Shown here in pieces: positions 18,287-37,374 of a DNA stretch of 64,000 nucleotides. Origin of the DNA: Catenulispora sp. (GTDB taxonomy: Bacteria > Actinomycetota > Actinomycetes > Streptomycetales > Catenulisporaceae); contig JABFXP010000051.1 of NCBI GenBank assembly GCA_013361685.1, forward strand, positions 78,013-142,012. The letters are read 5' to 3'. The position numbers and the translations under genes were made by a program. The stretch's first letter is position 1. The number at the start of each line of letters is the position of its first letter. Under the pieces are notes generated by a model. The model was not told where the DNA came from. It searched no databases and saw only the letters and a list, made by a program, of their open reading frames with translations.

Positions 18287-18295
18287 GCACCGCCG

Positions 18296-19130: not shown

Positions 19131-19297
19131 CCCGCCGCGCCGCGCGTCCCGTCCGAACTGTCAGCCAGCTGACACAATCGACCCCTCGGCGACCCTTACC
19201 TCGTGGCAGCTGTCGGTGAGGGCAGGGGAAGGAAACGGACGCCGTGGCGGGTTCCCTGGCTGACACCTTCGGCCGCAACGACGGAGAGCAGGCCCGG

Positions 19298-20713: not shown

Positions 20714-20719
20714 CCCGGC

Positions 20720-21019: not shown

Positions 21020-21056
21020 GGGTGGTCGACCTCCATCGTCGTCAGCCGGGTTCTCA

Positions 21057-21323
21057 TCATCGGGTCAGCCGTTCGGCGAAGCGGCGCAGCCGGGTCTCGG
21101 CTAGATCCGGCGGGGTGCGCCCCGGGCTGGCCCGCAGCGACTGCTTGATCAGGCGCAGGGTCTCGGCATAGCCGCTGCACATCCAGCACACCGCCAGGTG
21201 CGCGGCCACCCGCGGGCCGTCCGCACCGGTCAGCTCGCCGTCCAGATACGCGCCGACCATCCGGCGCAGCCGCAGATGCCGGGCCCACTGGCGGCACTCG
21301 TCCGCGGCCTGTTGCGCGTTCAC
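21057..21323 (-). CDS. zf-HC2 (ZAS-type) anti-sigma factor, short and soluble
   Basis: YLDGEL followed by HLAVCWMC (H-x3-C-x2-C). Paralogous to the ORF at 21973-22251. Confidence 0.65.
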   Translation of the reverse strand: MNAQQAADECRQWARHLRLRRMVGAYLDGELTGADGPRVAAHLAVCWMCSGYAETLRLIKQSLRASPGRTPPDLAETRLRRFAERLTR

Positions 21324-21343
21324 GCCAAGGGAACCCGGTTACC

Positions 21344-21976
21344 GTGGTCTGGGATTCCACAATGGAATTCCGATCTAGCCCGGCGGGTTTCCGACGCGTG
21401 GAGCAACCGGTGGCGAGCCTTGACGCAAGTCGGCAGGCGGCATTCGCGAAGTTCGTGCTGCCCGAGGTCGAAGTGCTCTACCGGGTCGCGCTGTCGATGA
21501 CCGCGCAGCCGGCCGACGCCGAGGACCTGGTGCAGGACACGCTGCTGCGCGCCTACCGCGCGATCGACCGGTTCGACGGGGCGCACCCCCGGGCCTGGCT
21601 GCTCACGATCTTGCGCAACGCCGAGGTCAACCGGCACCGGCGCCGCCGCCCGGATCTGCTGGACGACCCGGACGTGCACCTGGAACACGACACCGGTGGC
21701 GGACCGTTCGACATGGTGCCGCCCACGCCGGAGGAGCTGGTGGTCGGACGGGAGTTCGACGAGGTGGTGGACGCCGCGTTCGGCGCGCTGCCGGTCAAGC
21801 ACCGGCAGGTGGTCCGCCTGATCGACATCGACGGGCTGACCTACGCCGAGGCGGCCGTGCTGCTGGGAGTGCCGGAGGGAACCGTGATGAGCAGACTGCA
21901 CCGGGCCCGCAAGCGGATACGCGACCGCCTCGCCGCCGCCGGGCTCGCCCCGAAGCAGGGCGGTGGTGGACGATGA
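21344..21976 (+). CDS. ECF (sigma-70 family) RNA polymerase sigma factor
   Basis: Region 2 DAEDLVQDTLLRAYRAIDRF...WLLTILRN. Region 4 LTYAEAAVLLGVPEGTVMSRLHRARKRI. Alternative ATG at 21362. Confidence 0.85.
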   Translation: MVWDSTMEFRSSPAGFRRVEQPVASLDASRQAAFAKFVLPEVEVLYRVALSMTAQPADAEDLVQDTLLRAYRAIDRFDGAHPRAWLLTILRNAEVNRHRRRRPDLLDDPDVHLEHDTGGGPFDMVPPTPEELVVGREFDEVVDAAFGALPVKHRQVVRLIDIDGLTYAEAAVLLGVPEGTVMSRLHRARKRIRDRLAAAGLAPKQGGGGR

Positions 21977-22251
21977 TGGGCCGCCGACTGCGCCAGATGC
22001 GGGACATGCGCGAGTGCCTGCACGTCGGCCCACAGCTGCAGTCCTACCTGGACGGCGAGTGCGATCCGGCCACCGTCCGCCGGGTGGCCGCGCATCTGGA
22101 GTACTGCCGCAAGTGCGGCCTGGAGCTGGCCGCCTACCGGGAGATCAAGCGGGCGTTGGCGACGCACGAGCAGCCCGCCGACGATGCGGTCGCGCGCCTG
22201 CGGGCCTTCGGCGAGCACCTGGCCGGCGCGGGGCCAGAGGCGGAGCTGTAG
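21973..22251 (+). CDS. zf-HC2 (ZAS-type) anti-sigma factor, short and soluble
   Basis: ATGA overlap with the sigma gene. YLDGEC and HLEYCRKC (H-x3-C-x2-C). Confidence 0.75.
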   Translation: MMGRRLRQMRDMRECLHVGPQLQSYLDGECDPATVRRVAAHLEYCRKCGLELAAYREIKRALATHEQPADDAVARLRAFGEHLAGAGPEAEL

Positions 22252-22449
22252 CCGGCCGGCGGGGAAACCGCAGCTCCGGCCCGCGCCCGGGGAACTCGAC
22301 ACTCCTGCGTGTGCGGGCCGGAACCGGTCACCTGGAGGATACGGAGCGGGCCCGCCGCACCGCGAGTAGCACCCCGAGGGTCATGCCGAAGATCAGGTGC
22401 TCGACCAGGAAGGTGCCGTAGCCGACCATCGTGGCCATGTGCGTGATTT

Positions 22450-23015
22450 GATCGCCGCTGTTCGCGCTGCTGTATGCGATCGCCGAGACCGCGCTGTTCC
22501 CGGGCTCGGTGCTGACCGCCGCGGCGGGAGTGCTGTTCGGGCTCTGGCTCGGCACTGCGACCGTGCTGGTCGGCGCGACGGCGGGCGCGGCGCCGTCGTT
22601 CGGCCTGGCGCGATCACTCGGGCGCCCGGCGGTGGCCCGGCTGATCGGAGACGGCCGGCTGGCCGGGCTGGATGCGTTCGTGTCCTGGCAAGGTTTCTGA
22701 ACCGTGCTGATAGTGCGACTGGTGCCGCTGTTCCCGTTCGCGATCGTCAACTACGGGGCCGGGGTGAGCGCAGTGCGGTTCCGGCCGTACCTGGCGGCCA
22801 CCGCGATCGGCATCGTGCCCGGCACCCTGGCCTACGCCGGGATCGGCGTTTCGCTGCACGATCCCAGCTCTCCGGTGCTGTGGTCGGCGCTGGCGGGGCT
22901 GCTGGCCTTGACCGTCGGCGGCGCCTGGGCCGCCCGGGTCGTTCGCTCCCGCGCGACCCCGCCCGAAGACTCGGCAGGCGATGCTGTCCGGCCGTTCCAC
23001 GACACCCCGTCATGA
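22450..23015 (+). pseudogene. TVP38/TMEM64 (DedA-related) family membrane protein, 5'-truncated with an in-frame TGA at 22698-22700
   Basis: PLFALLYAIAETALFPGSVLTAAAGVLFG...VSWQGF*TVLIVRLVPLFPFAIVNYGAGVS. The family motif RL-P-x-x-PF is present after the stop. There is no start codon for the first 20 codons. Confidence 0.6.
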
Positions 23016-23095
23016 CAGATGGCTGATGCCTGACGGGGTCCTGGACACCGGCAGAACACTGGTTGGCATCCAAGCCATGGACGTTCCGTTCACGT

Positions 23096-23878
23096 TCACT
23101 CGGCTCGGGCGATCAGACGCCGGATCGGGATCGGAACCGAGGGGCGCATGACGGCCGCCGTCCGCACCGCCACGGACAGCACACGCATCCGGGCTGGACC
23201 GGTTCCTTGCAGGTACAGCGAGTCCAACAGCAGCTGCGCGTCGGCACCGGTGCGGACCCGGAAGGAAAAACGGCGCTGCTCGTCGCCGATCAGGCGCAGC
23301 CGGTGGCGGGCGAATGCAGCGCCGGCGTCGGCCAGCGCGGCGTTGTTGGGACTGCGCGGCAGCGATCCGGTACCCAGCAGCAGCCCGAAGAGCCGTGCGG
23401 CGTGGGCGGAGGTAGCGACCTCGGCGGGGACGGTCGCGGCGAGCAGGCCGCCGGGGCGCAGGACCCGGCGGATCTCGGCGAGCACAGCGTCCAGCGGCTG
23501 CGCGATCATCAGCGCCATCGAGCAGACCACCGTGTCGAATACGGCGTCGGGATGAGGCAGCGCGGCGGCGTCCGCGCGGATCAGCTTGCTGACGCCGCTG
23601 CGCTGGGCCGCGTTGAGCTCGGCGGGCGAGCGGTCGACGCCGACGTAAGCGCAGCCCGGCGCGACCGTGCGGCGCATCGGGGCGCTGCCGCAGGCCAGGT
23701 CCAGTACCGTGCCCTGCTTCGGGACGGCGTCGGCCAGCCACCGATACGGCGTGATCCCATGATCGACGGCACGTTGCAGGACGGCTTCGGTGATGCCGGG
23801 GTTGCGCTGGTGGAAGGCGCGCAGGAATTCTTGATTGATCACGCTGTTCTGGCCGATCACAGGATTCTGCGCCACCAT
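23096..23878 (-). CDS. class I SAM-dependent methyltransferase
   Basis: Motif I GTVLDLACGS and post-I/II blocks VGVDRS, DTVVCSMAL and LRPGGLL. Last gene of the 7-gene operon; overlaps the mycoredoxin gene by 22 nt. Confidence 0.8.
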   Translation of the reverse strand: MVAQNPVIGQNSVINQEFLRAFHQRNPGITEAVLQRAVDHGITPYRWLADAVPKQGTVLDLACGSAPMRRTVAPGCAYVGVDRSPAELNAAQRSGVSKLIRADAAALPHPDAVFDTVVCSMALMIAQPLDAVLAEIRRVLRPGGLLAATVPAEVATSAHAARLFGLLLGTGSLPRSPNNAALADAGAAFARHRLRLIGDEQRRFSFRVRTGADAQLLLDSLYLQGTGPARMRVLSVAVRTAAVMRPSVPIPIRRLIARAE

Positions 23879-24171
23879 GGCCTCCTCGCCGGCGCCACGT
23901 CGGCGGTCACCAGATCCGGCGCGTACTCCTCCACGGCGGCCAGCACCGTGGACACACTCGGGTTCACCATTGCGTGCCCGGCCACGACGACGGTGGGGAC
24001 GGTCTCGTCGCCGTTGGCGACCGAGCGCACGAATGCCTTGGCTTCAGGATCGTCCCAGATGTCGACCTCTCGGTAGTGCAGGCCGGTGGCGCGCAGGCCG
24101 CGTCGCAGCTTCCAGCAGTAGCTGCATCCGGGGCGCCAGTAGACGATCACCTCGCCGCTGGAATCGGTCAT
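23857..24171 (-). CDS. mycoredoxin / actinobacterial glutaredoxin-like protein
   Basis: VIVYWRPGCSYCWKL (CxxC), then EVDIWDDPEAKAFVRSV and ETVPTVVV. This pattern matches the mycoredoxin family. Confidence 0.75.
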   Translation of the reverse strand: MTDSSGEVIVYWRPGCSYCWKLRRGLRATGLHYREVDIWDDPEAKAFVRSVANGDETVPTVVVAGHAMVNPSVSTVLAAVEEYAPDLVTADVAPARRPWWRRIL

Positions 24172-24183
24172 GGGGCTTCCTCC

Positions 24184-25854
24184 TCAGATGGCGCAGTGCA
24201 CGGGCGCGGGCAGGTTGCCGTCGGCCAGGCGTGCGGCCAGGAACCGTTCGGTGACCAGGCGCTTGCCTTCGGCCAGCGGTGTGCCGGCCGGGGCCAGGTG
24301 CATGTCGGGGCTGGTCGCGGCATCGGCGCCGGCCGGGTGCCAGTGCAGGCCGTCGGCGCTGACGGTCAGCTCCGGGATGCTGCTGTCCTCGCCGATCTCC
24401 TGCCCGGTCTCGGAGAACCCGCGGCGCAGCAGGGGCCGTACCGCGAAGTTCGCCGGCGGCAGGCCGAGGCCGGCCAGAAGTTCGGCGACCTGCTCGATCT
24501 CGCCGGCGTTCTCCGGGGTCTCGGTCAGCGCCACGCGCGGCGGGAACCCGATGTCGATCAGGAGTCTGATGCCGTCCAGGGTGCGGGTGAACGAACCGCG
24601 TCCGCGGTGCGCGTCGTGGGTGGCCGGGCACGCGCCGTCCAGCGAGGTCTGGATCACCAGTTTGCGATCGGCCAGGTCGGCGAGCCGGGACATGCGCCGG
24701 GTTCCGGCGAGCATGGCGTTGGTCAGCACGACGGTGGGCAGCGCCGAGCTGGCGGCATCCAGCAGGGCGATGATGTCAGGGTGCAGGAACGGCTCGCCGC
24801 CGGTCAGGTACAGCTCGGCGAAGCCCTCGGCGACGGCCTGCTCGACCAGCGCGCCGAAGGCGTCCACCGTCAGCGATCTGGGCCGGGCCCGGGGTGAGGA
24901 CGCGACCGCGCAGTAGTCGCAGCGCAGGTTGCAGTGGAAGTTGGTGTAGATCCACAGCCGGGACGGGAAGTAGTCCGACCCGAACAGCGGGATCACCGGA
25001 CGCGCATCGTCGCCGGCGGAGGTCGTTTCGCCCCAGCCGCCGGCCGGGGCGAACGCGGTGGGCAGGGCGCTGCGATACAGGTGGAACCGTCCCCTTGAGC
25101 GCTCGGCCGGCGGCAGTGATTCCAGGCAGGTGGTCCACCAGCCGGTCTCGATGGTCTCGGCGAACGGCTCCGGGAGCCCGGCGTGGCGCATCGAGGCGGC
25201 CTGCGATCGCCAATCGTAGGCCAGTGGCACGAGTTCGGCCGAGGCCTGGCCGTCGTCGAGATCGAGCAGCGCGTACCAGACCTGCGTGTTCCCGTCATTC
25301 GCGGGCTTGCCCAGCACGCCCACGTTGACGGCGAGGGCCTGCCCGATCCGCCGGATCCAGGGCAGGCCGCTGTGCGTGCACAAGATCACTTGTGCGCCGC
25401 TGGCCGCCGCGCGCGCCCGGTGCTCGGATTCCGGCAGCGATTCCCACCAGAAGTCGTTGAGTGCCAACGGGGATCCGTGGACCATGTGGACGGCGCAGCC
25501 TCCGATCTGAAGGCGGCGCTCGGTGGGCAGAGCACCCATCCAGGCGGCGAACGGTCGGCTGGTGGTGGCCAGCGTGTGGTCGTAGATGAGCTGGGCGTAG
25601 GCGTTGTCGCGTTCGTCGCGGTAGCCGCAGCCGCAGTCCGGGTCGGCGCGGGCGATCGCGACGTCGTAGTTCCCGGCGACGCACTCGACGCGGTTTTCGC
25701 GCAGGATCGGCCACAGCGCGTCGACCTCGGCGCCGAACCCGCCCAGATCACCCAGACAGAACAAGCGGTCGGCACCCCGGACGCGGGCGTCGCAGACGAA
25801 CGCCCGCAGTGCGTAGGGGTTGCCGTAGGGGCCTCCGGATACTGCGATCCGCAT
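24184..25854 (-). CDS. fusion protein: N-terminal metallophosphoesterase-like domain + C-terminal radical SAM domain
   Basis: Residues 1-245 are calcineurin-like (LGDLGG, AGNYD, VHMVHGSP, LCTHSG). Residues 300-556 are radical SAM, with CNLRCDYC at residues 308-315 followed by LYLTGGEPFL. Confidence 0.8.
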   Translation of the reverse strand: MRIAVSGGPYGNPYALRAFVCDARVRGADRLFCLGDLGGFGAEVDALWPILRENRVECVAGNYDVAIARADPDCGCGYRDERDNAYAQLIYDHTLATTSRPFAAWMGALPTERRLQIGGCAVHMVHGSPLALNDFWWESLPESEHRARAAASGAQVILCTHSGLPWIRRIGQALAVNVGVLGKPANDGNTQVWYALLDLDDGQASAELVPLAYDWRSQAASMRHAGLPEPFAETIETGWWTTCLESLPPAERSRGRFHLYRSALPTAFAPAGGWGETTSAGDDARPVIPLFGSDYFPSRLWIYTNFHCNLRCDYCAVASSPRARPRSLTVDAFGALVEQAVAEGFAELYLTGGEPFLHPDIIALLDAASSALPTVVLTNAMLAGTRRMSRLADLADRKLVIQTSLDGACPATHDAHRGRGSFTRTLDGIRLLIDIGFPPRVALTETPENAGEIEQVAELLAGLGLPPANFAVRPLLRRGFSETGQEIGEDSSIPELTVSADGLHWHPAGADAATSPDMHLAPAGTPLAEGKRLVTERFLAARLADGNLPAPVHCAI

Positions 25855-25895
25855 GGTGTGCTGCTCCAGGTGGTTGGGGATTCAGGGTTCGGTTG

Positions 25896-27305
25896 TCAGG
25901 CGGGGGCCGGCACCGGAGCCGGTACCAACGATTCCAGGGCGCGTCCGGCGGCCTCGGTGCCGCCGCGCGCGCCGTAGGCGGTCATGGCACCGGCACCGAC
26001 CAGCCAGAAGGCGATGACCAGCAGGTAGGAGGCGGTGGGGCCGATCCGGGTGGCCACATCCGGCAGCGACAGGGTGCCGAGGATCGCGCCGATCCGGCCG
26101 ACGGCCACGCACATCCCTATCCCGGCGCCGCGCAGGTGGGTCGGGAACAGCTCGCTGAACGTCGGGTAGGCCGAGGTCCAGGCGGCTGTGGCCACGCCGT
26201 TGGCGACGACGAACGCCGCCGTCACCCAGGCCCCGGACCCGGTGGCGGTGGCGGCGGCCAGCAGCCCGACCCCGGCGGCTGCGGCCAGGTAGCTGCCGGT
26301 GACGGTGACCCGACGCCCGGCCCGGTCCAGCAGCGCCGCTGCCGTGAGCCCGCCGATCAGGCCGCCGACGTTGCCGACGATGTAGAAGAACGGGATCTGC
26401 GCCGATCCGATGTGGACTGCTGGTAGCACCACGACCGACAGCAGCGCGAAGATGCCGTAGTAGCCGAACGCCTCGGCCAGATCCAGCGCGGTGCCCAGCG
26501 CGAGCCGGCCGGGATAGCGGCGGACCAGCTCACCGAGCGCGGCCCGCGTCGATGGCGTCTGCCGCTCAGGCTCGGCCGCAGCCTCGTTCGGTGTCGGCCG
26601 GGTGATCCCGCAGGCGTGTTCGAGATCTGCCACGATCTGTTCGGCCTCGGCGGTCCGGCCGCGTGCGGCCAGCCAGCGCGGGGATTCCGGGATGCGGCGG
26701 CGGAAGTACAGCACGATCAGCGCCAGCAGCCCGCCCAGGACGAACAGGTATCGCCAGGATGTCGCGCTGCCCAGGGCGAGGGTGTCCAGCAGGAAGTAGG
26801 CCAGCAGGGCGGCGATGACCGCCCCGGCCGGCCAGAAGTTCATCACTGTCACCGACGCCCGGCCCCGGACCCGGGCCGGCATGAACTCGGCGATCGCCGC
26901 GTTCACGATCGCGTACTCGGCCCCCACCCCGAGGGCGGCCAGGAACCGCAGGACGTAGACGAAGCCGAGGCTGGGGCTTAGCCCGGTCAGCACGGTGAAC
27001 CCGGCGTACCAGAGCAACGTGAGCACGAACATGCGGCGCCGCCCGAGTCGGTCGGTCAGCGCCCCGCCGGTCAGGGCGCCGATCAGGATCCCGGACAGCC
27101 ACACTGCGAGTACTGAGTCGCGGGCGAACACCGAGGCGTGGAAGTGGTCGCCGAGCGGGCCGACGGCGCTGGAGAACAACTGCACCTCCAGGGAGTCGAA
27201 CAGCCAGCCGGCGCCCAGGGCGAGCAGGATCGTGGTGTGTCGGGGGCTCCAGGGCAGCCGGTCCAGGCTGGCACCGAGGGATTCCGGTGTCGAGGTCTCG
27301 GTCAT
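25896..27305 (-). CDS. MFS transporter
   Basis: About 12 TM segments; loop 2-3 motif TDRLGRRRMF. ATGA-type 4-nt overlap with the upstream fused transferase gene. Confidence 0.85.
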   Translation of the reverse strand: MTETSTPESLGASLDRLPWSPRHTTILLALGAGWLFDSLEVQLFSSAVGPLGDHFHASVFARDSVLAVWLSGILIGALTGGALTDRLGRRRMFVLTLLWYAGFTVLTGLSPSLGFVYVLRFLAALGVGAEYAIVNAAIAEFMPARVRGRASVTVMNFWPAGAVIAALLAYFLLDTLALGSATSWRYLFVLGGLLALIVLYFRRRIPESPRWLAARGRTAEAEQIVADLEHACGITRPTPNEAAAEPERQTPSTRAALGELVRRYPGRLALGTALDLAEAFGYYGIFALLSVVVLPAVHIGSAQIPFFYIVGNVGGLIGGLTAAALLDRAGRRVTVTGSYLAAAAGVGLLAAATATGSGAWVTAAFVVANGVATAAWTSAYPTFSELFPTHLRGAGIGMCVAVGRIGAILGTLSLPDVATRIGPTASYLLVIAFWLVGAGAMTAYGARGGTEAAGRALESLVPAPVPAPA

Positions 27306-28705
27306 CGCAACACGCTTCCTTTCGCACGGGAGGAACGGGCGGAGGACAGATTGCGCAGGGACGGGGGTCCCGCGGTGTAGCTGCGGCGCAGTGTTTCCGG
27401 TGAGGCACCGAGCAGGTAGCGGATCTTGATGATCTGCATGAAGGCGATCATGCGCCAGGTGCCGTGGGCTTGGAACCGGCGCGCCGAGGCGGTCGAGGTG
27501 GCGGTCAGGACGGCGAGCCGGCCGGTCTTGTGCAGGCGGCGGGAGAACTCGAAGTCCTCCATCAGCGGGTAGTCGGGGAAGCCGCCGAGCACGTCGAACA
27601 CGGTCCGGCGGACGAACATCGCCTGGTCGCCGAAGATCTGTCCGAGCCGTCGGGCGCGCTGGTTGGACGACCAGGCCAGGAATCGCAGGCCGATCGTGTC
27701 GTGGTCGAAGCGCAGGGTCAGGCCGCCGCCGACGACGTCCGCATCATCCAGCGCACGCCGAATGCCGTCCAGGGCGGCCGGGTCGATGACGGTGTCGGCG
27801 TGGACGAACCACAGAACCTCGCCGCCGGCCGCTTGAGCGCCGGTGTTGAGCTGGCGCCCCCGTCCAGGCTCGCAGCCGACCACCTTCGCGAAGCCGGCGG
27901 CGAGGTCCGCGGTGCCGTCTGTGCTGCCGCCGTCGACGACGACGATCTCGATGTCGGGGAAGTCGCGGCCGAGGCGGGTCAGGGCCGGCACGATCCCGGC
28001 GGCTTCGTTCAGTGTCGGCATGACGATCGAGACGGTGGCGTTGGTCATACCGACACCTGTCGTTGGCAGGAGAGCTTTGGCGACAGCGTCCGGCAACTCT
28101 GGATCCGCCAGCAGAGCTGCCGCATCCTCGGGGGTGTCGAGGTCACGAAGCGCCGGCAGCAGCTCGACACGCCCGGCTCGGCGCAGCCGGCTCACGGTCG
28201 CGGCCATGACGTGCGGGCCGCTCCACAGCGCCGGGTCGATGGCGAAGGCGGCCGGGTGCGGCCAGTGCACGGCCAGCAGGTAGTAGCCGCCGTCCAGGGC
28301 CGGGCCGATCGCGGCGGCCGAGCCGGAATCCAAGACGGTGAACGCCTGAACGATCATGTCGGCGGTCAGGGTCGGAGCGTCGGTGCCGATGACGACCAGC
28401 GGCCCGCCGCCGGGTAGAGCGTCATCGGCGGCGGCGGTCATTCGTTCGCCTAGGTTCCCGCCGCGTTGCGGCAGCAGCTCTACCTGCCCGCCGGTCAGGG
28501 CCCTGACCTCGGCCTGGGCGCTGGGCGGGTCGAAGGCCACCACGACGCGCCGCTGTGATCCCAGCGCGGTCGTCACGGTGTTCGCCAGCAGCTGCGCCTG
28601 CAGCCGTGCGCAGCCGTCCGGGCCGAGCAGCGGATGAAGGCGGGTCTTGACGCGGCCTGGACGCGGTGTCTTGGCCATCACCAGGACCGTCGGCGCGCCG
28701 GTCAT
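27302..28705 (-). CDS. fusion protein: DUF2064/CofC-like nucleotidyltransferase ('transferase 1') + family-2 glycosyltransferase ('transferase 2')
   Basis: N-terminal half: VLVMAKTPRPGRVKTRL, GGNLGERM, VVIGTDAP, PALDGGYYLL, LRDLDTPEDA. C-terminal half: VSIVMPTLNEA, EIVVVDGGSTDGT, GRGRQLNTGA, FVHADT, FGDQAMFVRR, PLMEDFEFSRRL. Confidence 0.8.
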   Translation of the reverse strand: MTGAPTVLVMAKTPRPGRVKTRLHPLLGPDGCARLQAQLLANTVTTALGSQRRVVVAFDPPSAQAEVRALTGGQVELLPQRGGNLGERMTAAADDALPGGGPLVVIGTDAPTLTADMIVQAFTVLDSGSAAAIGPALDGGYYLLAVHWPHPAAFAIDPALWSGPHVMAATVSRLRRAGRVELLPALRDLDTPEDAAALLADPELPDAVAKALLPTTGVGMTNATVSIVMPTLNEAAGIVPALTRLGRDFPDIEIVVVDGGSTDGTADLAAGFAKVVGCEPGRGRQLNTGAQAAGGEVLWFVHADTVIDPAALDGIRRALDDADVVGGGLTLRFDHDTIGLRFLAWSSNQRARRLGQIFGDQAMFVRRTVFDVLGGFPDYPLMEDFEFSRRLHKTGRLAVLTATSTASARRFQAHGTWRMIAFMQIIKIRYLLGASPETLRRSYTAGPPSLRNLSSARSSRAKGSVLR

Positions 28706-29490
28706 GATGTGAACCGGTAGATCAGGCCCGCCGGCGTCAGGTCGGCCAGCTTTGGCAGCGCCGCCTCCAGCAGATCGGCGAAGATCCCGGCGCTGGCCGC
28801 CATGCGGGCCACCAAGGCGTCGATCGGCTCCGGATGCTCGACCACACCGTTGGCGTAGTCGGTGACGAATCCGACCAGCGCAAGCGGTAGCTCCGCCTCA
28901 CCGGCGAGCACCACCTCCGGGCCGGCGGTCTGGCTGACCGCGCTGACGCCGACGCCGGCCAGCGCGGCGATCTCCGTGCGGGTGTTGAAGCGCGGGCCGT
29001 CGACGTGCCCGTAGCAGCCGCGGTCCCGCAGCGGGGTGCCAGCCGCGCCGGCGGCGCTGATCAGAGCTTCGCCCACGGGTGCGCTGAACGGCCGATCGAA
29101 GATCCAGTGTCCGCGGTCCTTCGCGGCCGGCTCGTCGAACCAGGTGCACGTGCTCCCGTCCGGCAGCCGGTTGCCCGGGAAGTACAGGTCGTCGAACACG
29201 ATCAGCGACCCGGGTTCGACCGCCGGGTCCACCGCGCCGCACACGGTCAGCGAGATCACGCAGTCGACGCCTGTCTCCCGCAACGCGGCGATGTTCGCCT
29301 TGTGGTCGACGTGGTTGGACAGTCGGGCGTGCCCGGTGCCGTGCCGGGCCAGATGCACCACCTCGACGCCGGCCACCGTGCCGACGGTGACGTCGGCCTC
29401 GCCGTGGCGGGTCTGCATCGTCCGTGAGACCGCGTCCTGAAGACCGGGCCAGGTGTAGCCGCCCGATCCGCTGATCACCCCTACTCGCAT
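28702..29490 (-). CDS. MTAP-family purine nucleoside phosphorylase (S-methyl-5'-thioadenosine phosphorylase-like)
   Basis: VGVISGSG, LARHGTGH, HKANIAALRETGVDCVISLTVCGAV, GPRFNTRTE and VTDYA blocks of the PNP_UDP_1/MTAP family. Confidence 0.85.
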   Translation of the reverse strand: MRVGVISGSGGYTWPGLQDAVSRTMQTRHGEADVTVGTVAGVEVVHLARHGTGHARLSNHVDHKANIAALRETGVDCVISLTVCGAVDPAVEPGSLIVFDDLYFPGNRLPDGSTCTWFDEPAAKDRGHWIFDRPFSAPVGEALISAAGAAGTPLRDRGCYGHVDGPRFNTRTEIAALAGVGVSAVSQTAGPEVVLAGEAELPLALVGFVTDYANGVVEHPEPIDALVARMAASAGIFADLLEAALPKLADLTPAGLIYRFTS

Positions 29491-30923
29491 GTGGGCCTCT
29501 CCATCGTCGTCGCATCCTCACGTCCGCCGGTGCGGACCTGCACGATCGGTAGCAGTCGCCGCAGTTGCGCGTTCTCGCCCGGGTCCAGCACGCTGTGCTG
29601 CACGCACGCCGGAACCACCGTCCCGTCCTCCGGGTGGGCCATCGCGTAATGGCACGCCGACAGCCGCTCGACGGTTTCCCGGATCCGCGGATCATCGCTG
29701 CTCTGGCCGCGCTGCATGAGATCCCAGGCCGTAGTGACGTCGGCGGCGTCCATGAACCGGTGCATCACGTAGGACGTGATACGCACCCGGCGGCACCGCG
29801 CCAGGCGCCTGATACCCACGCGGCGCACGGCACGGACCAGCCAGCCCACCGCGAGGACGACGGTCTGCGGGCGGCGCACCGCGACCCTGGTCAGCTGGGC
29901 TGCGAGCTGTGGGACGGGGGTTCCTGCGAAATCAAAGGCTCCCAGGTGCCGGAAGAACCCGTCGCGGACCGCCAGGTCCCGTCGATCCGCACCGTCGAGG
30001 ACCGGGAACCAGCGATCACCGACCCAGAAGCCGTAGGCGACCCGATTGCAGCGCACATCGCCGTGCTCGAAGATCCGATAATCCAGCTTGGTTCCGACCC
30101 CGCGCTCGATCTGCTCCCACACAGCGTCGCTGTCCACATCTCGGTAGTCCTCGTGCCAGCGGCGGGAGTCCCCGACGAAAGCCGCCGGCTGGAAGGAGAA
30201 CATCCCGAACCCCATGCCGCTGCTGTCGCGGACCACGTCGGCGACCTGGTCCAGGTTGGCCGGCGTGACGGTCATGTTGTGCGCGGCGAAGGTGCGCACC
30301 CCGGTCTCGGCGCGCAGCCGGCGCAGCTTGGCGGTGAACTCGGCCCGATACCGGTTCAGAGAGCGCTCGTCACCCGGGCGCGCGATGCCGCGGCGGCCGA
30401 ACATGAACATATCGAAGTGCGCGGCGAACGACAGCCGGTCGAACCGGCGCTTCCCGTCCGGGCCGAGCGCGAGCCGGCGAAGGTAGGCGTAGTCGACGTC
30501 GCCGTGGGTGAAGCTCATCGGCTCCCGGCCGTGCTGGCGCATCGCGGCCAGTGCCGCCGCATGGTCGTCGGGGTCCAGCAGGCTCACCTCGCCGCCGATC
30601 AGCTGCGCGTGCGCCCGCGGGCCGCGGACCCGGCGCAGCAGCGCCATCTGCGCCTCCACGTTCGCCACCGTGTGGCCGCCGTCAACGCGGACCTGGTTGG
30701 CGTCGCGAGAGTGGTAGCAGGGCGTGCAGGCCAGATTGCACTTGGGGAACACCCCGTGAGTGCCCTCACACCCCACGCCATGCCGCCCCAGCACCTGCCC
30801 TGGCGTTTTGACGTGAGGCGGGAGATCGTCCCAGCGCCGCCGCATCGCCGCCGCGAAGTCGCCGTCCACCGGGCGTGTGACACACTCCAGCCGCCGCAGC
30901 ATCGACACCACGCGCCACGTCAT
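29481..30923 (-). CDS. radical SAM protein, unclassified 480-aa family
   Basis: CNLACTPC (CX3CX2C) at residues 62-69, then LIGGEVSLL. Large C-terminal extension with conserved-looking Cys/His. First gene of the operon. Confidence 0.8.
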   Translation of the reverse strand: MTWRVVSMLRRLECVTRPVDGDFAAAMRRRWDDLPPHVKTPGQVLGRHGVGCEGTHGVFPKCNLACTPCYHSRDANQVRVDGGHTVANVEAQMALLRRVRGPRAHAQLIGGEVSLLDPDDHAAALAAMRQHGREPMSFTHGDVDYAYLRRLALGPDGKRRFDRLSFAAHFDMFMFGRRGIARPGDERSLNRYRAEFTAKLRRLRAETGVRTFAAHNMTVTPANLDQVADVVRDSSGMGFGMFSFQPAAFVGDSRRWHEDYRDVDSDAVWEQIERGVGTKLDYRIFEHGDVRCNRVAYGFWVGDRWFPVLDGADRRDLAVRDGFFRHLGAFDFAGTPVPQLAAQLTRVAVRRPQTVVLAVGWLVRAVRRVGIRRLARCRRVRITSYVMHRFMDAADVTTAWDLMQRGQSSDDPRIRETVERLSACHYAMAHPEDGTVVPACVQHSVLDPGENAQLRRLLPIVQVRTGGREDATTMERPTCE

Positions 30924-31121
30924 TCATCACTCCGCTCACGAGCCAGCACCGACCAGATCCAGGAAGGGAACCCGCTGCCCGGCGGGAACCTTCCATCCAG
31001 TCCGGGATGAACCCGACTCCAGCCCCAACCGTTTTGATCTTGGGGGCGGTCTGCCGCTGGTCTTGTCGAGCGCTGAAGCCGGTGCCGGGGTGTCGGGCAT
31101 GCCGCCCAAGGAGGTCTCGCC

Positions 31122-31628
31122 ATGCCACGCATCGTCCACCAGGTCGCAGCGTGCGCCGCCGTCGGATTCGCGGCAGCAGCACTGGCCGCCGGCTGCTCAA
31201 GCAGCGCCACCACCGCACCCGCACCGGGCGCCACCCCGAACCCCCAGGCGCCGACCAGCGCCGCCGGTGCCGTCGTGGCAGTGCACGATTCCCAACTCGG
31301 CAAGATCCTTGTGGACGGGCAGGGACGAACCCTCTACCTGTTCGAGAGCGACACCCCAACCACGTCAACGTGCTACGGCAACTGCACCACTGCCTGGCCG
31401 CCCTACACCACGGCCGGCGCGCCGCAGGCAGGCGCGGGCGTGATCGCGAGCAAGCTCGGCACCTTGGCCCGCACCGACGGCGGCACCGAGATCACCTATA
31501 ACGGCCATCCGCTGTACTACTACCGCGGCGACCAGAACCCTGGAGACACCACCGGGCAGGGAAACACCTCCTACGGCGCCCCCTGGTACGTGCTTGACGC
31601 CGGCGGCAACGCGATCACCGGCGGCTGA
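31122..31628 (+). CDS. secreted lipoprotein with duplicated YxxD repeat (COG4315/Lipoprotein_15-like)
   Basis: Lipobox LAAGC. Repeats GRTLYLFESD...C...CTTAWPP and GHPLYYYRGD...G...WYVL. Confidence 0.75.
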   Translation: MPRIVHQVAACAAVGFAAAALAAGCSSSATTAPAPGATPNPQAPTSAAGAVVAVHDSQLGKILVDGQGRTLYLFESDTPTTSTCYGNCTTAWPPYTTAGAPQAGAGVIASKLGTLARTDGGTEITYNGHPLYYYRGDQNPGDTTGQGNTSYGAPWYVLDAGGNAITGG

Positions 31629-31863
31629 CGTCCGGTAGCCGATCGGCCTGGCGAATCCGGGTCCGCCCTGCGCGGAGTGGAAGGCACCCGAGCGCCGCCG
31701 GGTTCCCCAGGGTGGGCGCCGCGAACGTCCGGCGATCGATCATGACGGGATGTGCGATGAACGGCAGTCGAATGCCGCTGACCGGGGCGACGCGCAGAAT
31801 GCGTGCTGTCCGTCGCAGACCCTGGCACCGAGCGCGTCGGCTGCGTCGTGGCGGTCTTCGGCC

Positions 31864-32799
31864 ATGACGCCGGCATATCTGCCGAGCCCGCCGCACGGCG
31901 TGTGGCATCTGGGCCCGATTCCGCTGCGGGCCTACGCCCTCTTCATCCTGGCCGGGATCGTCGTCGCGATCTGGGTGACCCGGCGGCGCTGGAGCGCCCG
32001 CGGCGGCAGCGCCGACGACATCGTGGACATCGCGCTCTGGGCCGTGCCGTTCGGGCTGGTCGGCGGTCGGCTCTACCACGTGACCACCGACCCCGAGCTG
32101 TACTTCAAGTACGGCGAACAGCCGATCCGCGCCCTGTACATTTGGGACGGCGGCCTGGGTATCTGGGGTGCGGTGGCGCTCGGGGCGGTCGGAGCGTGGA
32201 TCGGCTGCCGACGCAAGGGCATCGTCCCGGCCGACTTCGCCGACGCCGTGGCCCCGGGCCTGGTGCTGGCGCAGGCGATCGGCCGCTGGGGCAACTACTT
32301 CAACCAGGAGCTGTACGGCAGGCCGTCCGGTCTGCCATGGGCGATCCGCATCGACCCGGCGCACCGGCCGCCATCCACCCCGGACGCCGTGTTCCACCAG
32401 CCGACGTTCCTGTACGAATCGGTCTGGGACGTTGGGGTCGCGGTGTTGCTGCTGTGGGTCGACCGTCGCTGGCAACCGCGCCGCGGACGCCTGTTCGCGA
32501 TCTATGTCGTGGCCTACACCCTGGGCCGGGCCTGGGTGGAGGCGCTGCGCGAGGACCACGCCAACCGCATCGCCGGGGTGCGCCTGAACGACTGGACCTC
32601 GCTGCTGGTGTTCACCGCCGCGATCGTCTACCTGACCCTGCGCCGCGATCGCACCGTCACCCCCGCCACCGCGGCCGAACCGGAGCACCGCAGGCCCGAA
32701 TCCCGCGAGAGCGGGCAGGGCGACAAGCCTCCTGAGCCCGACCCGACACAGAACAGAAAATCAGCCCGAGCTCCCACCGACAGCGAAGGTCCACCGTGA
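31864..32799 (+). CDS. lgt: prolipoprotein diacylglyceryl transferase
   Basis: Blocks LRAYALFILAGI, GGRLYHV, IWDGGLGIWG, GRWGNYFNQELYG and PTFLYES. ATG at 31864, internal to the track ORF. Confidence 0.9.
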   Translation: MTPAYLPSPPHGVWHLGPIPLRAYALFILAGIVVAIWVTRRRWSARGGSADDIVDIALWAVPFGLVGGRLYHVTTDPELYFKYGEQPIRALYIWDGGLGIWGAVALGAVGAWIGCRRKGIVPADFADAVAPGLVLAQAIGRWGNYFNQELYGRPSGLPWAIRIDPAHRPPSTPDAVFHQPTFLYESVWDVGVAVLLLWVDRRWQPRRGRLFAIYVVAYTLGRAWVEALREDHANRIAGVRLNDWTSLLVFTAAIVYLTLRRDRTVTPATAAEPEHRRPESRESGQGDKPPEPDPTQNRKSARAPTDSEGPP

Positions 32800-32857
32800 G
32801 CCGCTGAACGCACCGTGCCCGGTCAGGGGGCCGCCCACATCGGCTGACCCGAAAGAG

Positions 32858-33391
32858 TGGATTCTCCATCGAGGTGTGTCATCTCGCTGACAACCCTCAA
32901 CGGCTGCTTCGCAGCGTTCGTCTACAGAGGCGCCGGGATGATGCCCGAGCCCGCGATGAGCGGCCAGCCGGCCATGCCCGGCGGCCGATGACGGGCGGAC
33001 ACTCGGACATGATGATGAACACCCCGATCGTCACCAGCCACCTGCTGGTCGGCGGCAGCCTGCACCTGCTGATGTCGGCAGCCGCCGGATCGCGTTCGCC
33101 CTCTTGCTCGCCCTGCTCATCCGGACCCGCACCCTGATCTCCGGATTGCTGGCCGGCCCGCTGGGCTACCCGGTCGCCGCTACGCTCGGAGGGGCACTGC
33201 TCTATGTGGTCATGATGTACGCGGTCGCCCCGGCGCTGAACACCGAGATCTCCGACAACACCGCACGCGCCCCGTTCTTCCTCGCGCACCTGCTGTTCGG
33301 CGCGGTAACCGGGGCCTTCGTCTACTGGCGCGCCGTGCGCCCGCGCGGCGCGGCCTGGGCGGGCGCGCCGACCGGCTCGATGGCCGGCTGA
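32858..33391 (+). pseudogene. small polytopic membrane protein, apparently disrupted by two frameshifts
   Basis: Three consecutive frame segments read plausibly as one protein: LNGCFAAFVYRGAG..., then TPIVTSHLLVGGSLHLLMSAAAG, then IAFALLLALLIRT...APFFLAHLLFGAVTGAFVYW. Confidence 0.35.
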
Positions 33392-33422
33392 CAACGCTTC
33401 CCCCGTTGCCGCGCCTGGTATC

Positions 33423-33713
33423 TCAGGTCTCTGTCGGCGGCTTGATCCGGCAGGCGCGGCGGCGGGAGCGGCGGCGCACGGTCGTCACGACGGCGGTGCC
33501 CACCACCACCGCTGCCGCAACGATAACCCACGGATTGGCCAGGAACGCCCCCACCGCGCCCAGCACTCCGGCGGCCAGCAGTGCGGGCCCGGCACAACAC
33601 ACGATCACCGCTACGGCGGCGCCGATCCCCGCCAGGAGGCCACCAGGACCGGGCCCGACCGGCTTGGACCCCGGAGCCGGATCGCGCGAGGGTGTGGTGC
33701 TGTCTGACGGCAT
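33423..33713 (-). CDS. mercury transport membrane protein (MerT/MerF-like)
   Basis: ATG at 33713, 4 nt after the ArsR-type gene stop. TM helix with a vicinal Cys pair (VIVCCAGPALL), then a second TM and a basic tail with Cys. Confidence 0.6.
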   Translation of the reverse strand: MPSDSTTPSRDPAPGSKPVGPGPGGLLAGIGAAVAVIVCCAGPALLAAGVLGAVGAFLANPWVIVAAAVVVGTAVVTTVRRRSRRRACRIKPPTET

Positions 33714-33717
33714 TGGT

Positions 33718-34116
33718 TCAGTCCTGTCGGCTGGTCGGGATGCGGGTGCAGCAATCCAAGGCGGCGGAATTGTCCGCAGCAAGGGCACGGGCCAGCACTA
33801 ACAGGTCCGCCACCCGCGGATCGCCGGCCGAGTAGCGGAACTTCTTGCCGTCCCGGCGGGCGACCACATAGCCGCAATCGACCAGGCACGACAGGTGCAC
33901 CGAGGCCCGCGGCTGGGAGATGCCGGCGTGCTCGATGCACTCGGCCACGGTGCGCTCGCCGGCCAGGATGAACTCCAGCAGCCCCAGCCGGGTCGGATCA
34001 CCCAGCGCCCGGAAGAACCGGGCCACCGTGTCGGTGTGCGAACAGCCCTCCTCGAGCGCGGCCGGCGCGAGGCTCACGGCACTGGTGCTGACGTTCACGG
34101 CGGTCCTCCCGGGCAA
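33718..34116 (-). CDS. ArsR/SmtB family metalloregulator (actinomycete-type mer repressor)
   Basis: FRALGDPTRLGLLEFIL...VAECIEHAGISQPRASVHLSCLVDCGYV. Divergent to merA. Confidence 0.85.
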   Translation of the reverse strand: MPGRTAVNVSTSAVSLAPAALEEGCSHTDTVARFFRALGDPTRLGLLEFILAGERTVAECIEHAGISQPRASVHLSCLVDCGYVVARRDGKKFRYSAGDPRVADLLVLARALAADNSAALDCCTRIPTSRQD

Positions 34117-34219
34117 CTGCTATTCGCTTACACGCATAATATGCTAGCCTCATGCTATTCGGCAAGGCACATAGCAAGACTCCGGCGCAGGACGCCGGAA
34201 TGGGGCACAGGAGGCGGCA
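34117..34219. promoter_or_regulatory. divergent mer promoter/operator region
   Basis: The most AT-rich stretch in the area (cacgcataatatgctagcc). TGCTAT-N12-ATAGCA inverted repeat at 34153-34176, plus a third TGCTAT at 34118-34123. Confidence 0.4.
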
Positions 34220-35647
34220 ATGGCCAGCACGGGCAGCGGATACGACCTGGCGATCATCGGCTCCGGCTCGGCGGCGTTCGCCGCGGCCATCGCCGCCCGC
34301 GGCAAGGGCGCGTCGGTCGTCATGATCGAGCGCGGCACGATCGGCGGTACCTGCGTGAACGTGGGCTGCGTGCCGTCCAAGGCGCTGCTGGCCGCCGCCG
34401 AGGCCCGCCACGCGTCCCTGACCGCGCACCGTTTCCCCGGCATCATCGCCGACGCGGGCACCGTGGACATGCCCGCGCTGATCGGCGGCAAGGACACGCT
34501 GGTCACGCAAATGCGTGCGGAGAAGTATGTGGACCTGGCCGCCGACTACGACTGGGAAATCGTGGCCGGGACCGCGTCGTTCGTCGACGGCTCGGCGCTG
34601 ACCGTGGCGTTGAACGACGGCGGCCTGCGAACGATCGAGGCCGCGCACTACCTGGTCGCCACCGGTTCCGCACCCTGGATCCCGCCGGTGCCGAGACTGG
34701 CCGAGGCCGGGTATCTGACCTCGACGACCGCGATGGAACTCGAGCACCTGCCGGAATCGATGGTGGTGGTCGGCGGCAACGCCGTCGGCCTGGAGCAGGC
34801 CCAGCTGTTCGCCCGACTCGGCGTCGCGGTGACCGTGGTCGAAGCCCTGGACCGGCTGGCCCCGTTCGAAGAACCCGAGATCTCCGCGGTCATCGAGCAG
34901 GTCTTCACCGGCGAGGGCATCACCGTCCGCACCGCCACCACGCTGACCGGCGTCGACCGCGACGAACGCGGCTATACGCTGACCGCAGCTCGCGCCGGCG
35001 AGCTGGTCGAGCTGCGGGCCGAGCAGCTGCTGATCGCCACCGGCCGCCGCCCGGTCACGACCGGGCTCTGCCTGGACAAGGCCGGGGTGAAGACCGGCCG
35101 GCGAGGCGAGATCGTCGTGGACGAGCACCTGCGCACCACCAACCCACGGATCTGGGCCGCCGGCGACGTCACCGGTCACCCTCAGTTCGTTTACGTCGCC
35201 GCCGCCCACGGCACCCTGGTCGCCGACAACGCCCTGTCCGGCGCCGACCGGACCCTGGACTACACCGCGATGCCGCGCGTCACCTTCACCAGCCCGGCCA
35301 TAGCCTCGGTCGGGATGACCGACGAACAAGCCGTCCAGGCAGGCATCGGCTGCGACTGTCGCACCCTGCCGCTGGAGTACGTGCCCAGGGCGTTGGTGAA
35401 CCGCGACACGCGCGGCCTGGTCAAACTCGTCGCCGATGCCGAAACCGGCCGGCTGCTGGGCGCGCACGTGATCGCCGAGGGCGCCGGCGAACTCATCACC
35501 GCCGCAGGCTACGCGATCAGCGCCGGGATGACCGTCGACCAGATCGCCCACGCCTGGGCCCCATACCTGACCATGGCCGAGGCGCTCAAGCTCGCCGCCC
35601 AGACCTACACCGCCGACGTCAGGAAACTGTCCTGCTGCGCCGGCTGA
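34220..35647 (+). CDS. merA: mercuric reductase (no NmerA domain)
   Basis: YDLAIIGSGSAAF, redox pair GGTCVNVGCVPSK, and the C-terminal vicinal cysteines ...RKLSCCAG. Confidence 0.9.
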   Translation: MASTGSGYDLAIIGSGSAAFAAAIAARGKGASVVMIERGTIGGTCVNVGCVPSKALLAAAEARHASLTAHRFPGIIADAGTVDMPALIGGKDTLVTQMRAEKYVDLAADYDWEIVAGTASFVDGSALTVALNDGGLRTIEAAHYLVATGSAPWIPPVPRLAEAGYLTSTTAMELEHLPESMVVVGGNAVGLEQAQLFARLGVAVTVVEALDRLAPFEEPEISAVIEQVFTGEGITVRTATTLTGVDRDERGYTLTAARAGELVELRAEQLLIATGRRPVTTGLCLDKAGVKTGRRGEIVVDEHLRTTNPRIWAAGDVTGHPQFVYVAAAHGTLVADNALSGADRTLDYTAMPRVTFTSPAIASVGMTDEQAVQAGIGCDCRTLPLEYVPRALVNRDTRGLVKLVADAETGRLLGAHVIAEGAGELITAAGYAISAGMTVDQIAHAWAPYLTMAEALKLAAQTYTADVRKLSCCAG

Positions 35648-35740
35648 ATAGGGCCGGAGGTGATCGCTCCCGTGGACCGTGAACATGCCAACGTTCTGAT
35701 GATCGCCGGAAAGCTGTCGGCGCTGTCGGGGTCTGTGCTG

Positions 35741-35929
35741 CTACCGCGCGGGCAGCTCGCGGATCCCGTACCCGCGTAGCAGTTCGGCGACCTCGTCGCT
35801 CGGCAGCTTGGTGCCGTTCGGGTCGAGCACCAGCTCGTCCGTCGAGGCGCCGGCTTCGATCAAGGTTGTCACGGTGGCTACCCGGTCGAGGTCCGGGACC
35901 TGGTCAGGGTGGTGGCCGCTACCGACCAC
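35741..35929 (-). pseudogene. ankyrin-repeat-like C-terminal fragment
   Basis: NPLDWAVVGSGHH...VTTLIEAGAS resembles a single ANK repeat. The frame is closed by a stop about 24 nt (8 codons) upstream of the GTG. Confidence 0.3.
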
Positions 35930-36227
35930 CGCCCAGTCGAGCGGGTTGCGTCAAAGCTGGTGTCGCGGGTCTCCAGGTCGGCACCCCAGAAATTGCCTGC
36001 ACCGAACGGGCGGCACAGTCCAGATTGCGGATTCGCGGACCGGTGACCTGCGGCGTCGTGGTCGAAGTGCGGGATCGGCCTCCGGCCGAACGCCGGCCAC
36101 CGCGGCATGGGCTGGCCTTCCCGCCGGGGCTTGAGGGAGGCAGACTGGAGTGGAGGCCGCTCCATGATCCCGGGGGCGGCTCGGGACAGCGGTCTCGCTG
36201 TACCGACGCCCGGGCGGGTGGCGGGAG

Positions 36228-36887
36228 GTGAGCGAGGTGACCGAGCAAGCCACGGTCACGGATACGCGCTGGCGTCTTGCCGGTGACTGGTTCGACACTT
36301 GCAAGTGCGCGATTCCCTGTCCGTGCACGTTCGCCCAGGCACCCACTTCCGGCTACTGCGAGGGCATCATGGCTTGGCACATCCGTGAGGGTAGCTACGG
36401 CGAGGTACGTCTCGATGACCTCAACGCTCTGATGGTTGGGTCCTTCGTCGGTAACCTGTGGGCCGGTGAGCACACGGACCCGTACGCCGCGATCTTCTTC
36501 GACGAGCGGGCCGACGAGCAGCAGCGGGCCGCGCTGGGGGCGATCTTCAGCGGGCAGGCCGGCGGCTGGCCGGCACAGTTCGGCGCGATGTTCCACCCCG
36601 AGATGCGGGGCATGGAGTTCGTGCCTATCCGGGTCGGCATCGATGCGGAGCTGGAGTGCGAAGGTCCCCGGGCGGGTCAGTGCGGCTGCCGAGGCGCTGA
36701 GCGGGCCGACCACGCCCGAGGGGCGCGGGTCCAGGTTCACAACGCTCCGGGTGCGGAGGTCGGGCCCGGCCAGGTCGCCACTTGGGGACGCGCCACCGCG
36801 CACCGGGCGGATGTGTTCGGGTTCACCTGGGACCGCGCCGGATGCTCAAGCAAGTACTTCCCGTTCGACTGGAGCGGCCCGGACTGA
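36228..36887 (+). CDS. DUF1326 domain protein
   Basis: WRLAGDWFDTCKCAIPCPCTF signature and C-terminal FGFTWDRAGCSSKYFPFDWSGP. The central part may carry compensating frameshifts (see findings). Confidence 0.7.
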   Translation: MSEVTEQATVTDTRWRLAGDWFDTCKCAIPCPCTFAQAPTSGYCEGIMAWHIREGSYGEVRLDDLNALMVGSFVGNLWAGEHTDPYAAIFFDERADEQQRAALGAIFSGQAGGWPAQFGAMFHPEMRGMEFVPIRVGIDAELECEGPRAGQCGCRGAERADHARGARVQVHNAPGAEVGPGQVATWGRATAHRADVFGFTWDRAGCSSKYFPFDWSGPD

Positions 36888-36924
36888 GCACCCGGCCCGA
36901 AGTCGTGAACCGAGGGAGACACTC

Positions 36925-37374
36925 ATGCATGCCAGGGTCGAGTTCGATTTCCACACCGATGCGACGCCTGAGCAGGTCGTCGGCCTGCTGACCGACTTCT
37001 CTCCGGAGCGTCCGGACCACTGGCCGGCGCTTTCGCGGAAGTGGTTCGAGGTGTATTCGGTCGGTGAGCACGAGGCGGACGTCCGCGAGGGGCAGGACCG
37101 GCCGAGGATTTGGGCCAGGGAGCACTACGAGTGGTCGACGCCCGGCAAGGTCACTTGGACCGTCGTGGAGTGCCCGGCCGTGGCGCCCGGCAGCTACGTG
37201 TCGTTGGAGGCGGAACCGGCCGTCGGTGGTGGCAGCGACGTGCACGGCGAGTGGGACCGCACCTCCCGGAACGCCAAGGGCGTGATGGCCGTTGTCGCGA
37301 TGCGTGCGATGGGTCGCAGGATCTTGCCGCGCTACTTCAAGAAGGTCTACGACGGCCTCGCCGCGCGCTCGTGA
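36925..37374 (+). CDS. SRPBCC (START/polyketide cyclase-like) family protein
   Basis: 149 aa from an ATG after a GAGGGAG RBS. Pattern of the type VEFDFHTDATPEQVVGLLTDF...WP...W. Confidence 0.65.
   Translation: MHARVEFDFHTDATPEQVVGLLTDFSPERPDHWPALSRKWFEVYSVGEHEADVREGQDRPRIWAREHYEWSTPGKVTWTVVECPAVAPGSYVSLEAEPAVGGGSDVHGEWDRTSRNAKGVMAVVAMRAMGRRILPRYFKKVYDGLAARS

Follow-up and report, generated by a model that had tools for sequence, protein, structure and literature searches.

A Tes-like radical SAM gene coupled to a specialised MTAP-like phosphorylase gene in a possible actinobacterial variant of the ArsS-type cassette

We analyzed a stretch of 64,000 nucleotides from Catenulispora sp. (assembly GCA_013361685.1, contig JABFXP010000051.1, positions 78,013 to 142,012; this whole stretch is hereafter the window, and positions refer to it), in which the gene for a 480-amino-acid radical S-adenosylmethionine (SAM) enzyme (P0001, here rSAM480; 29481–30923, minus strand) overlaps that for a phosphorylase resembling methylthioadenosine phosphorylase (P0002, MTAP-like; 28702–29490, minus strand). 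Pathways in which a radical adenosylation precedes the removal of adenine by an enzyme of the PNP/MTAN fold are known from HpnH/HpnG (adenosylhopane) and MqnE/MqnB (futalosine), and ArsS is a 5΄-deoxyadenosyl-adding enzyme that acts on arsenic. A preliminary description had proposed that the pair carries out such a step, with the 480-residue protein as the adenosylating enzyme. Our analysis points to a different arrangement, in which the seven genes that begin with this pair constitute an actinobacterial version of the ArsS-type (arsenosugar) cassette with a distinct Tes-like module attached, a reading that we hold about as strongly as we doubt it. Adenosylation and subsequent adenine removal probably hold for the operon as a whole, because the phosphorylase is of the ArsS-cassette type and the transferases are the cassette's own. 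However, the adenosylated intermediate is more likely to be made by a second radical SAM protein of the operon, P0005, than by the 480-residue protein, because the family of the latter abstracts hydrogen and occurs independently of the phosphorylase across genomes. The earlier proposal thus probably survives for the operon and fails for the protein to which it had been assigned. To our knowledge, the arsenosugar steps that follow ArsS, namely adenine removal and the activation and transfer of the 5-substituted ribose, have no assigned enzymes.

The gene pair and its conservation

The rSAM480 open reading frame encodes the radical SAM motif C62-N-L-A-C66-T-P-C69 (CX3CX2C, residues 62–69) and GGE at residues 110–112; three C-terminal blocks that had been singled out before were located at residues 242–256, 386–396 and 439–448. 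The second open reading frame encodes 262 amino acids that match PF01048 (PNP_UDP_1) with 86 bits. The phosphorylase ATG lies 10 nucleotides ahead of the end of the rSAM480 stop codon (junction sequence: ...ACATGCGAGTAG), and a ribosome-binding-like GGAGAGG is located just 5΄ of it. The cysteine motif and the 10-nucleotide overlap with an MTAP-like gene, both described previously, were therefore borne out by the open reading frames and their junction. The GC content at third codon positions is approximately 0.9 for both frames, which is typical of real genes in a genome of 70% GC. The pair constitutes the first two of seven minus-strand genes that extend from 30923 to 23096 with overlaps or short gaps. 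The third, P0003 (27302–28705, minus strand), overlaps its neighbors by 4 nucleotides at either end and encodes a fusion of the two transferases of the ArsM/ArsS cassette (TIGR04167, TIGR04282, TIGR04283): a TIGR04282 half (transferase 1; DUF2064, CofC-like; 163.8 bits, cut-off 134) and a TIGR04283 half (transferase 2; glycosyltransferase family 2, GT2; 225.6 bits, cut-off 182), both above their cut-offs.

We compared gene neighborhoods at 80 related loci (L022–L101) from other genomes, of which 51 were complete, with at least 6 kb on either side. An MTAP-like gene was present at 27 of the 80 rSAM480 loci, including 24 from Streptomycetaceae and none of the 19 from Pseudonocardiaceae. It was directly downstream of rSAM480 at 25 loci, mainly from Streptomycetaceae, an adjacency that is therefore not due to chance and that agrees with the expectation that the pairing would recur in other genomes; the other 53 loci had no phosphorylase. 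Among the complete loci, all 23 with the phosphorylase also had a P0005-type gene and the phosphorylase never occurred without one, while 13 complete loci had only the P0005-type gene of the two and 15 lacked both. TIGR04283 and P0005-type genes occurred together at 35 of 36 loci. The P0005-type cassette was nearly exclusive with a YnjF-like CDP-alcohol phosphatidyltransferase and a YnjBCD-type ATP-binding cassette (ABC) importer (31 versus 14 loci, with both in 5).

A specialised phosphorylase

P0002 scored 155.6 bits against the MTAP equivalog model TIGR01694, which is below the cut-off of 274.85, and matched the HpnG model weakly (22.6 bits, cut-off 187). The Streptomyces genomes that carry the operon encode a separate housekeeping MTAP scoring 288–297 bits, compared with 140–148 bits for the operon copy. 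The identity of P0002 was 43–45% to the MTAP-like proteins encoded next to ArsS and 31–35% to housekeeping MTAP, and in a maximum-likelihood tree the operon-linked and ArsS-linked phosphorylases were split from housekeeping MTAP by one branch (support 100/99). The assignment of P0002 as the housekeeping MTAP was rejected on the basis of this split and of the separate MTAP in operon-bearing Streptomyces; a tight grouping with housekeeping MTAP had been named beforehand as evidence that would speak against the proposal.

The two linked groups also agree in their active sites (residues in human MTAP numbering). Both keep S/T18, R60, H61, H65, F177, T197 and D220, of which the phosphate- or base-contacting T/S18, R60, H61, H65, T197 and D220 were conserved in all members compared (28 linked to the operon and 4 to ArsS), and both show the substitutions A94V, S178N, M196Q and D222A relative to housekeeping MTAP. 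At three ArsS loci from other Actinomycetota (L135, L137 and L143), the gene order was TIGR04283, ArsS, MTAP-like. Judged by its sequence, P0002 is thus a specialised MTAP paralogue that shares its group and its active-site signature with the phosphorylases directly behind true ArsS. A paralogue with a fixed four-residue signature, found either behind ArsS or in an operon lacking ArsS, would be a specific candidate for the enzyme that removes adenine.

We also considered that the phosphorylase might only clear by-products, that is, remove 5΄-deoxyadenosine and 5΄-methylthioadenosine (MTA) that inhibit the radical SAM enzymes and methyltransferases of the operon. MTAP-family enzymes accept 5΄-deoxyadenosine, the operon encodes two radical SAM domains, and a search of this genome (completeness 90%) revealed no second MTAP. 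However, operon-bearing Streptomyces have, in addition, a housekeeping MTAP that exceeds the cut-off, and the nucleoside pocket of the operon enzyme is remodelled as in the ArsS-linked members. In addition, the gene directly precedes a transferase pair that requires an input of the sugar-1-phosphate type, and it is absent from rSAM480 loci without the cassette. These observations make by-product clearance an unlikely sole role.

A further comparison concerns methylthioxylose, which caps mycobacterial lipoarabinomannan. In Mycobacterium tuberculosis, we take the neighbors of Rv0539 to be an MTAP (Rv0535) and a DUF2064 protein (Rv0540). Rv0539 (MtxS) makes the lipid-linked methylthioxylose donor (PMC12088412). 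As in the TIGR04283 half of P0003, a GT2 enzyme would load a 5-substituted pentose, derived from a 5΄-substituted adenosine, onto a lipid carrier. By analogy, MTA could be converted into 5-methylthioribose-1-phosphate, which the two transferase domains would activate and load onto a lipid without any adenosylating radical SAM enzyme, and GT2, DUF2064 and MTAP would follow the same three-enzyme logic. The pathway of M. tuberculosis, however, has no radical SAM enzyme, whereas the cassette is always accompanied by one, and the phosphorylase pocket is unlike that of housekeeping MTAP and groups with the ArsS-linked enzymes. We therefore regard a methylthioxylose-like route as improbable, and retain the ArsS-type cassette as the preferred reading of the phosphorylase and transferase genes.

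One side observation concerns the loss of the phosphorylase. In Actinocrinis puniceicyclus, a 75-residue MTAP-like remnant with 46% identity (L022:6146-6307) lies between the rSAM480 and TIGR04282 genes, which suggests that the phosphorylase was lost recently there.

P0005 as a candidate counterpart of ArsS

P0005 (24184–25854, minus strand) combines a Cys-rich metallophosphoesterase-like domain (PF12850) with a radical SAM domain (PF04055). Its residues 294–554 were nearest to the Rv1681 family NF049973 (259–261 bits), below the cut-off of 380. In one genome, a true ArsS (TIGR04167 plus DUF3641) was fused to an N-terminal phosphoesterase-like domain that is collinear with that of P0005. The two N-terminal domains have in common GCGCxY and, at the place where the first phosphoesterase motif would normally stand, GGxYGNPxAL; no NCBIfam model matched either domain. 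In 36 orthologues of P0005, C33, C58, C74, C76, C159 and C243 of the N-terminal domain were kept, as was C554, which is located three residues from the C-terminus. This set of conserved cysteines would fit the binding of a thiophilic substrate, and the two-domain layout of P0005 is that of the phosphoesterase-like/ArsS fusions.

The operon therefore shares with the ArsM/ArsS cassette both transferases, a specialised MTAP-like phosphorylase as found at ArsS loci, and a Cys-rich phosphoesterase-like domain as found in ArsS fusions. It differs in having an Rv1681-type radical SAM domain instead of TIGR04167 and DUF3641, in the lack of a detectable ArsM-like gene in this genome, and in the addition of a Tes-like radical SAM enzyme, a mycoredoxin and a CxxxxC flavoprotein. 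The operon suggests that a fusion of an Rv1681-type radical SAM domain with a Cys-rich phosphoesterase-like domain can replace ArsS, and surveys of arsenic genes would overlook such operons. Our literature searches yielded no paper that deals with the function of TrsS, with this cluster, or with Rv1681 in the role of a radical SAM enzyme.

Two minor observations were made on these protein families. True ArsS occurred in two fused forms, one of 678 amino acids with the Cys-rich phosphoesterase-like domain (L139:9535-11571, minus strand) and one of 714 amino acids with an ArsM-type methyltransferase domain (L140:8322-10466, plus strand). Furthermore, three sequences that resemble the phosphoesterase-like or the Rv1681-type domain of P0005 (G089:C26:49867-50589, G120:C181:15787-16509 and G333:C16:18780-19571) each contain a single in-frame TGA and may represent selenoproteins or broken genes.

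rSAM480 as a relative of Tes

At a threshold of E 0.001, the rSAM480 family numbers over 2,500 proteins, among which identities of about 70% are common, and its homologues are annotated just as 'radical SAM domain-containing protein'. In 24 members, C52, CX3CX2C, GGE, C292, H388, F390, M391, C424 and C440 were invariant or nearly so. The closest NCBIfam models were TrsS (NF045646, an uncharacterised family) and the tetraether lipid synthase Tes, and P0001 reached neither cut-off, nor that of any other NCBIfam model. P0001 itself did not match the Tes/GDGT-MAS model NF045702 at E 0.01 or better; this model was matched by distant family members only (best E 2.4e-20). Similarly, a phmmer search of the PDB sequences with P0001 alone gave no match, and GDGT-MAS of Methanocaldococcus jannaschii (MJ0619; PDB 7TOL and 7TOM) was reached by the family profile only (7TOL: E 4.3e-17, profile positions 54–442, chain residues 110–503).

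The structural comparison used an alignment-based AlphaFold model (predicted local distance difference test score, pLDDT, 85), a single-sequence model (pLDDT 37.7) having been discarded. The best Foldseek matches of this model were 7TOL and 7TOM. With VIA-align, residues 32–464 of the model were superposed on 7TOL over 328 residues (Z 21.6, root-mean-square deviation 4.1), while the runners-up reached Z 13.9 and covered the core only. Tes/GDGT-MAS was therefore the best match to P0001 by both profile and structure, over nearly its whole length, in searches of the kind that the preliminary description had proposed. In the hidden Markov model (HMM) alignment, C292, C424 and C440 fell on cysteines of the C-terminal cluster domain of Tes, an H-x-F-M-D-A block was common to both, and the invariant H388 aligned with the labile ligand Met439 of Tes, under the assumption that the PDB sequence numbering equals the native numbering plus 20. 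A pairing of the labile methionine with M391 of P0001 was rejected, because the count along the HMM alignment gives H388.

P0001 thus differs from Tes in carrying His388 at the position of the labile methionine. It also lacks the rubredoxin and N-terminal [4Fe-4S] domains of Tes (C9/C12/C33/H36 and C73/C77/C80), having approximately 50 residues before the radical SAM motif with one conserved cysteine (C52), and its gene has as neighbors either genes of redox and metalloid type or one for a YnjF-like transferase. On the evidence of the family profile and the structural model, P0001 is a trimmed homologue of Tes/GDGT-MAS that consists, over almost its full length, of a radical SAM core and a putative C-terminal auxiliary [4Fe-4S] domain. 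The C-terminal region of about 300 residues, which had previously been left unplaced, indeed falls outside all family cut-offs, but it can be placed as the auxiliary-cluster domain of Tes/GDGT-MAS (E 4e-17, Z 21.6). We know of no tetraether production in actinobacteria; with rSAM480, a minimal version of the Tes fold would be present in aerobic soil members of this group.

Tes is an archaeal enzyme that joins lipid tails by C–C coupling by way of an intermediate bound to its cluster. It abstracts a hydrogen from the methyl group of a lipid, with release of 5΄-deoxyadenosine (PMC9433317). Through its homology to Tes/GDGT-MAS, P0001 therefore clusters with families that only abstract hydrogen, an outcome that the preliminary description itself had named as contrary to its proposal. 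Nevertheless, the possibility that P0001 itself adds the 5΄-deoxyadenosyl radical, and that the coupled phosphorylase removes adenine from the adduct, deserves attention. The phosphorylase is a specialised paralogue, its gene overlaps that of P0001, and it directly follows rSAM480 at the 25 loci mentioned above. Moreover, the phosphorylase gene of canonical cassettes comes immediately after ArsS, whereas here it comes immediately after the gene of P0001, to which it is translationally coupled, so that P0001 stands in the place of ArsS. Gene position hence favors P0001 as the adenosylating enzyme and is the main argument against our assignment to P0005. However, P0001 is a nearly full-length homologue of a hydrogen-abstracting enzyme with its auxiliary-cluster ligands kept. 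No ArsS, HpnH or MqnE model was among its matches, and at a threshold of E 0.01 the 24 members of its family likewise matched neither the HpnH nor the MqnE model. In addition, the phosphorylase is missing from 53 of the 80 family loci, including all 19 from Pseudonocardiaceae, and accompanies rSAM480 solely where a P0005-type gene is present. We consequently consider adenosylation by P0001 improbable.

A proposed route and the evidence against it

In the ArsS-type reading that we prefer, the radical SAM domain of P0005, aided by the Cys-rich domain and the terminal Cys554, would add the 5΄-deoxyadenosyl radical to a thiophilic acceptor, for which a methylated form of arsenic(III) or an analogue with selenium or sulfur might come into question. 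P0002 would then strip adenine by phosphorolysis to yield a 5-substituted ribose-1-phosphate, which the TIGR04282 half of P0003 would turn into a nucleotide sugar for transfer to an acceptor by the TIGR04283 half. Redox and methyl steps might be provided by the mycoredoxin, the methyltransferase and the CxxxxC flavoprotein. The logic of these steps would be identical to that of HpnH/HpnG and MqnE/MqnB, although neither radical SAM protein of the operon matched the HpnH or MqnE models. The ArsS chemistry on which the comparison draws is that of the ArsM/ArsS arsenosugar pathway (Cheng et al. 2021, as cited in PMC12159101). P0001, in turn, would abstract hydrogen from a probably lipid-like substrate by means of a site-differentiated auxiliary cluster, with release of 5΄-deoxyadenosine, and its coupling to the phosphorylase gene would reflect a lineage-specific gene order.

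A more far-reaching reading, which we consider very unlikely, is that the operon encodes all steps by which an actinobacterium would make an arsenolipid or a glycolipid that contains a metalloid. In this scheme, P0005 would form a 5΄-metalloid adenosine, P0002 and the two transferases of P0003 would convert it into the sugar head, and the Tes-derived enzyme would use its site-differentiated cluster to functionalise an unactivated lipid carbon with a C–C or carbon–heteroatom bond. If this were true, it would provide the first enzymes for the late steps of arsenosugar or arsenolipid formation, and the Tes fold would have gained a further type of reaction.

In addition to gene position, several observations weigh against an ArsS-type cassette. 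The match of P0005 to the ArsS model TIGR04167 reached 51–53 bits over the core only (cut-off 300), and DUF3641 (PF12345) was not found in P0005, which is thus a candidate counterpart of ArsS by architecture and context and not by profile. No ArsM-like gene was found in the 90% of the genome that is represented in the assembly. Of the 11 genomes with ArsS, only 4 had an MTAP-like gene next to it, and these 4 belong to a single taxonomic family; TIGR04283 was also present in genomes that lack both ArsS and a P0005-type gene. Finally, the functions in the proposed route are predictions from sequence for every protein of the operon.

We further surveyed 401 genomes drawn evenly from the phylum (the tallies include the unpublished G120, G148 and G318, on which no other claim depends). 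rSAM480 and ArsS were each present in 11 of the 401 genomes, and no genome had both. A full-length P0005-type gene was present in five genomes, of which four had rSAM480 and all five had TIGR04283. As a side observation, 15 of 31 genomes of one taxonomic family (f20) had TIGR04283 slightly over the cut-off; none of them had ArsS or rSAM480, and a P0005-type gene occurred in G141 only. These genomes may represent a third context for the TIGR04283 transferase.

Other genes of the operon and its surroundings

Between P0003 and P0005 lies a gene for an MFS transporter (25896–27305, minus strand; PF00083 and PF07690), which was present in 6 of the 80 related loci. Downstream of P0005, the operon ends with a mycoredoxin (23857–24171, minus strand; TIGR02200, 89.8 bits, cut-off 89.5) and a class I SAM methyltransferase (23096–23878, minus strand; PF08241), which is weakly DVU_1556-like (NF045667, 62 bits, below the cut-off). 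A scan of positions 18000–37000 with Rfam revealed no riboswitch or other RNA family, and a consensus scan revealed no promoter, and no more terminators than expected by chance.

On the opposite strand, P0275 (19244–20713, plus strand) encodes a CxxxxC flavoprotein disulfide reductase (Pyr_redox_2; NF004991, 405 bits, below the cut-off). It was rejected as a mercuric reductase because it lacks the C-terminal cysteine pair. As judged by clustering, its family was the steadiest neighbor of rSAM480, within 10 kb at 60 of the 80 loci; other recurring neighbors were a SelL-related redox protein, DedA, MauE and a pair of an extracytoplasmic function (ECF) sigma factor and a ZAS anti-sigma factor. 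The latter pair is located at 21344–22251 (plus strand) in the window, and its sigma family (f6) was found at 25 related loci. An ArsM-like methyltransferase gene adjoined the cluster at 18 of the 80 loci.

The DedA/VTT-family gene at 22458–22982 (plus strand) matched residues 81–255 alone of a 256-amino-acid orthologue, which adjoins rSAM480 in other genomes, and therefore looks truncated. Approximately 3 kb upstream of the operon, a true mercuric reductase gene, MerA (34220–35647, plus strand; TIGR02053, 608 bits, cut-off 454), is divergent from an ArsR/SmtB regulator gene (33718–34116, minus strand).

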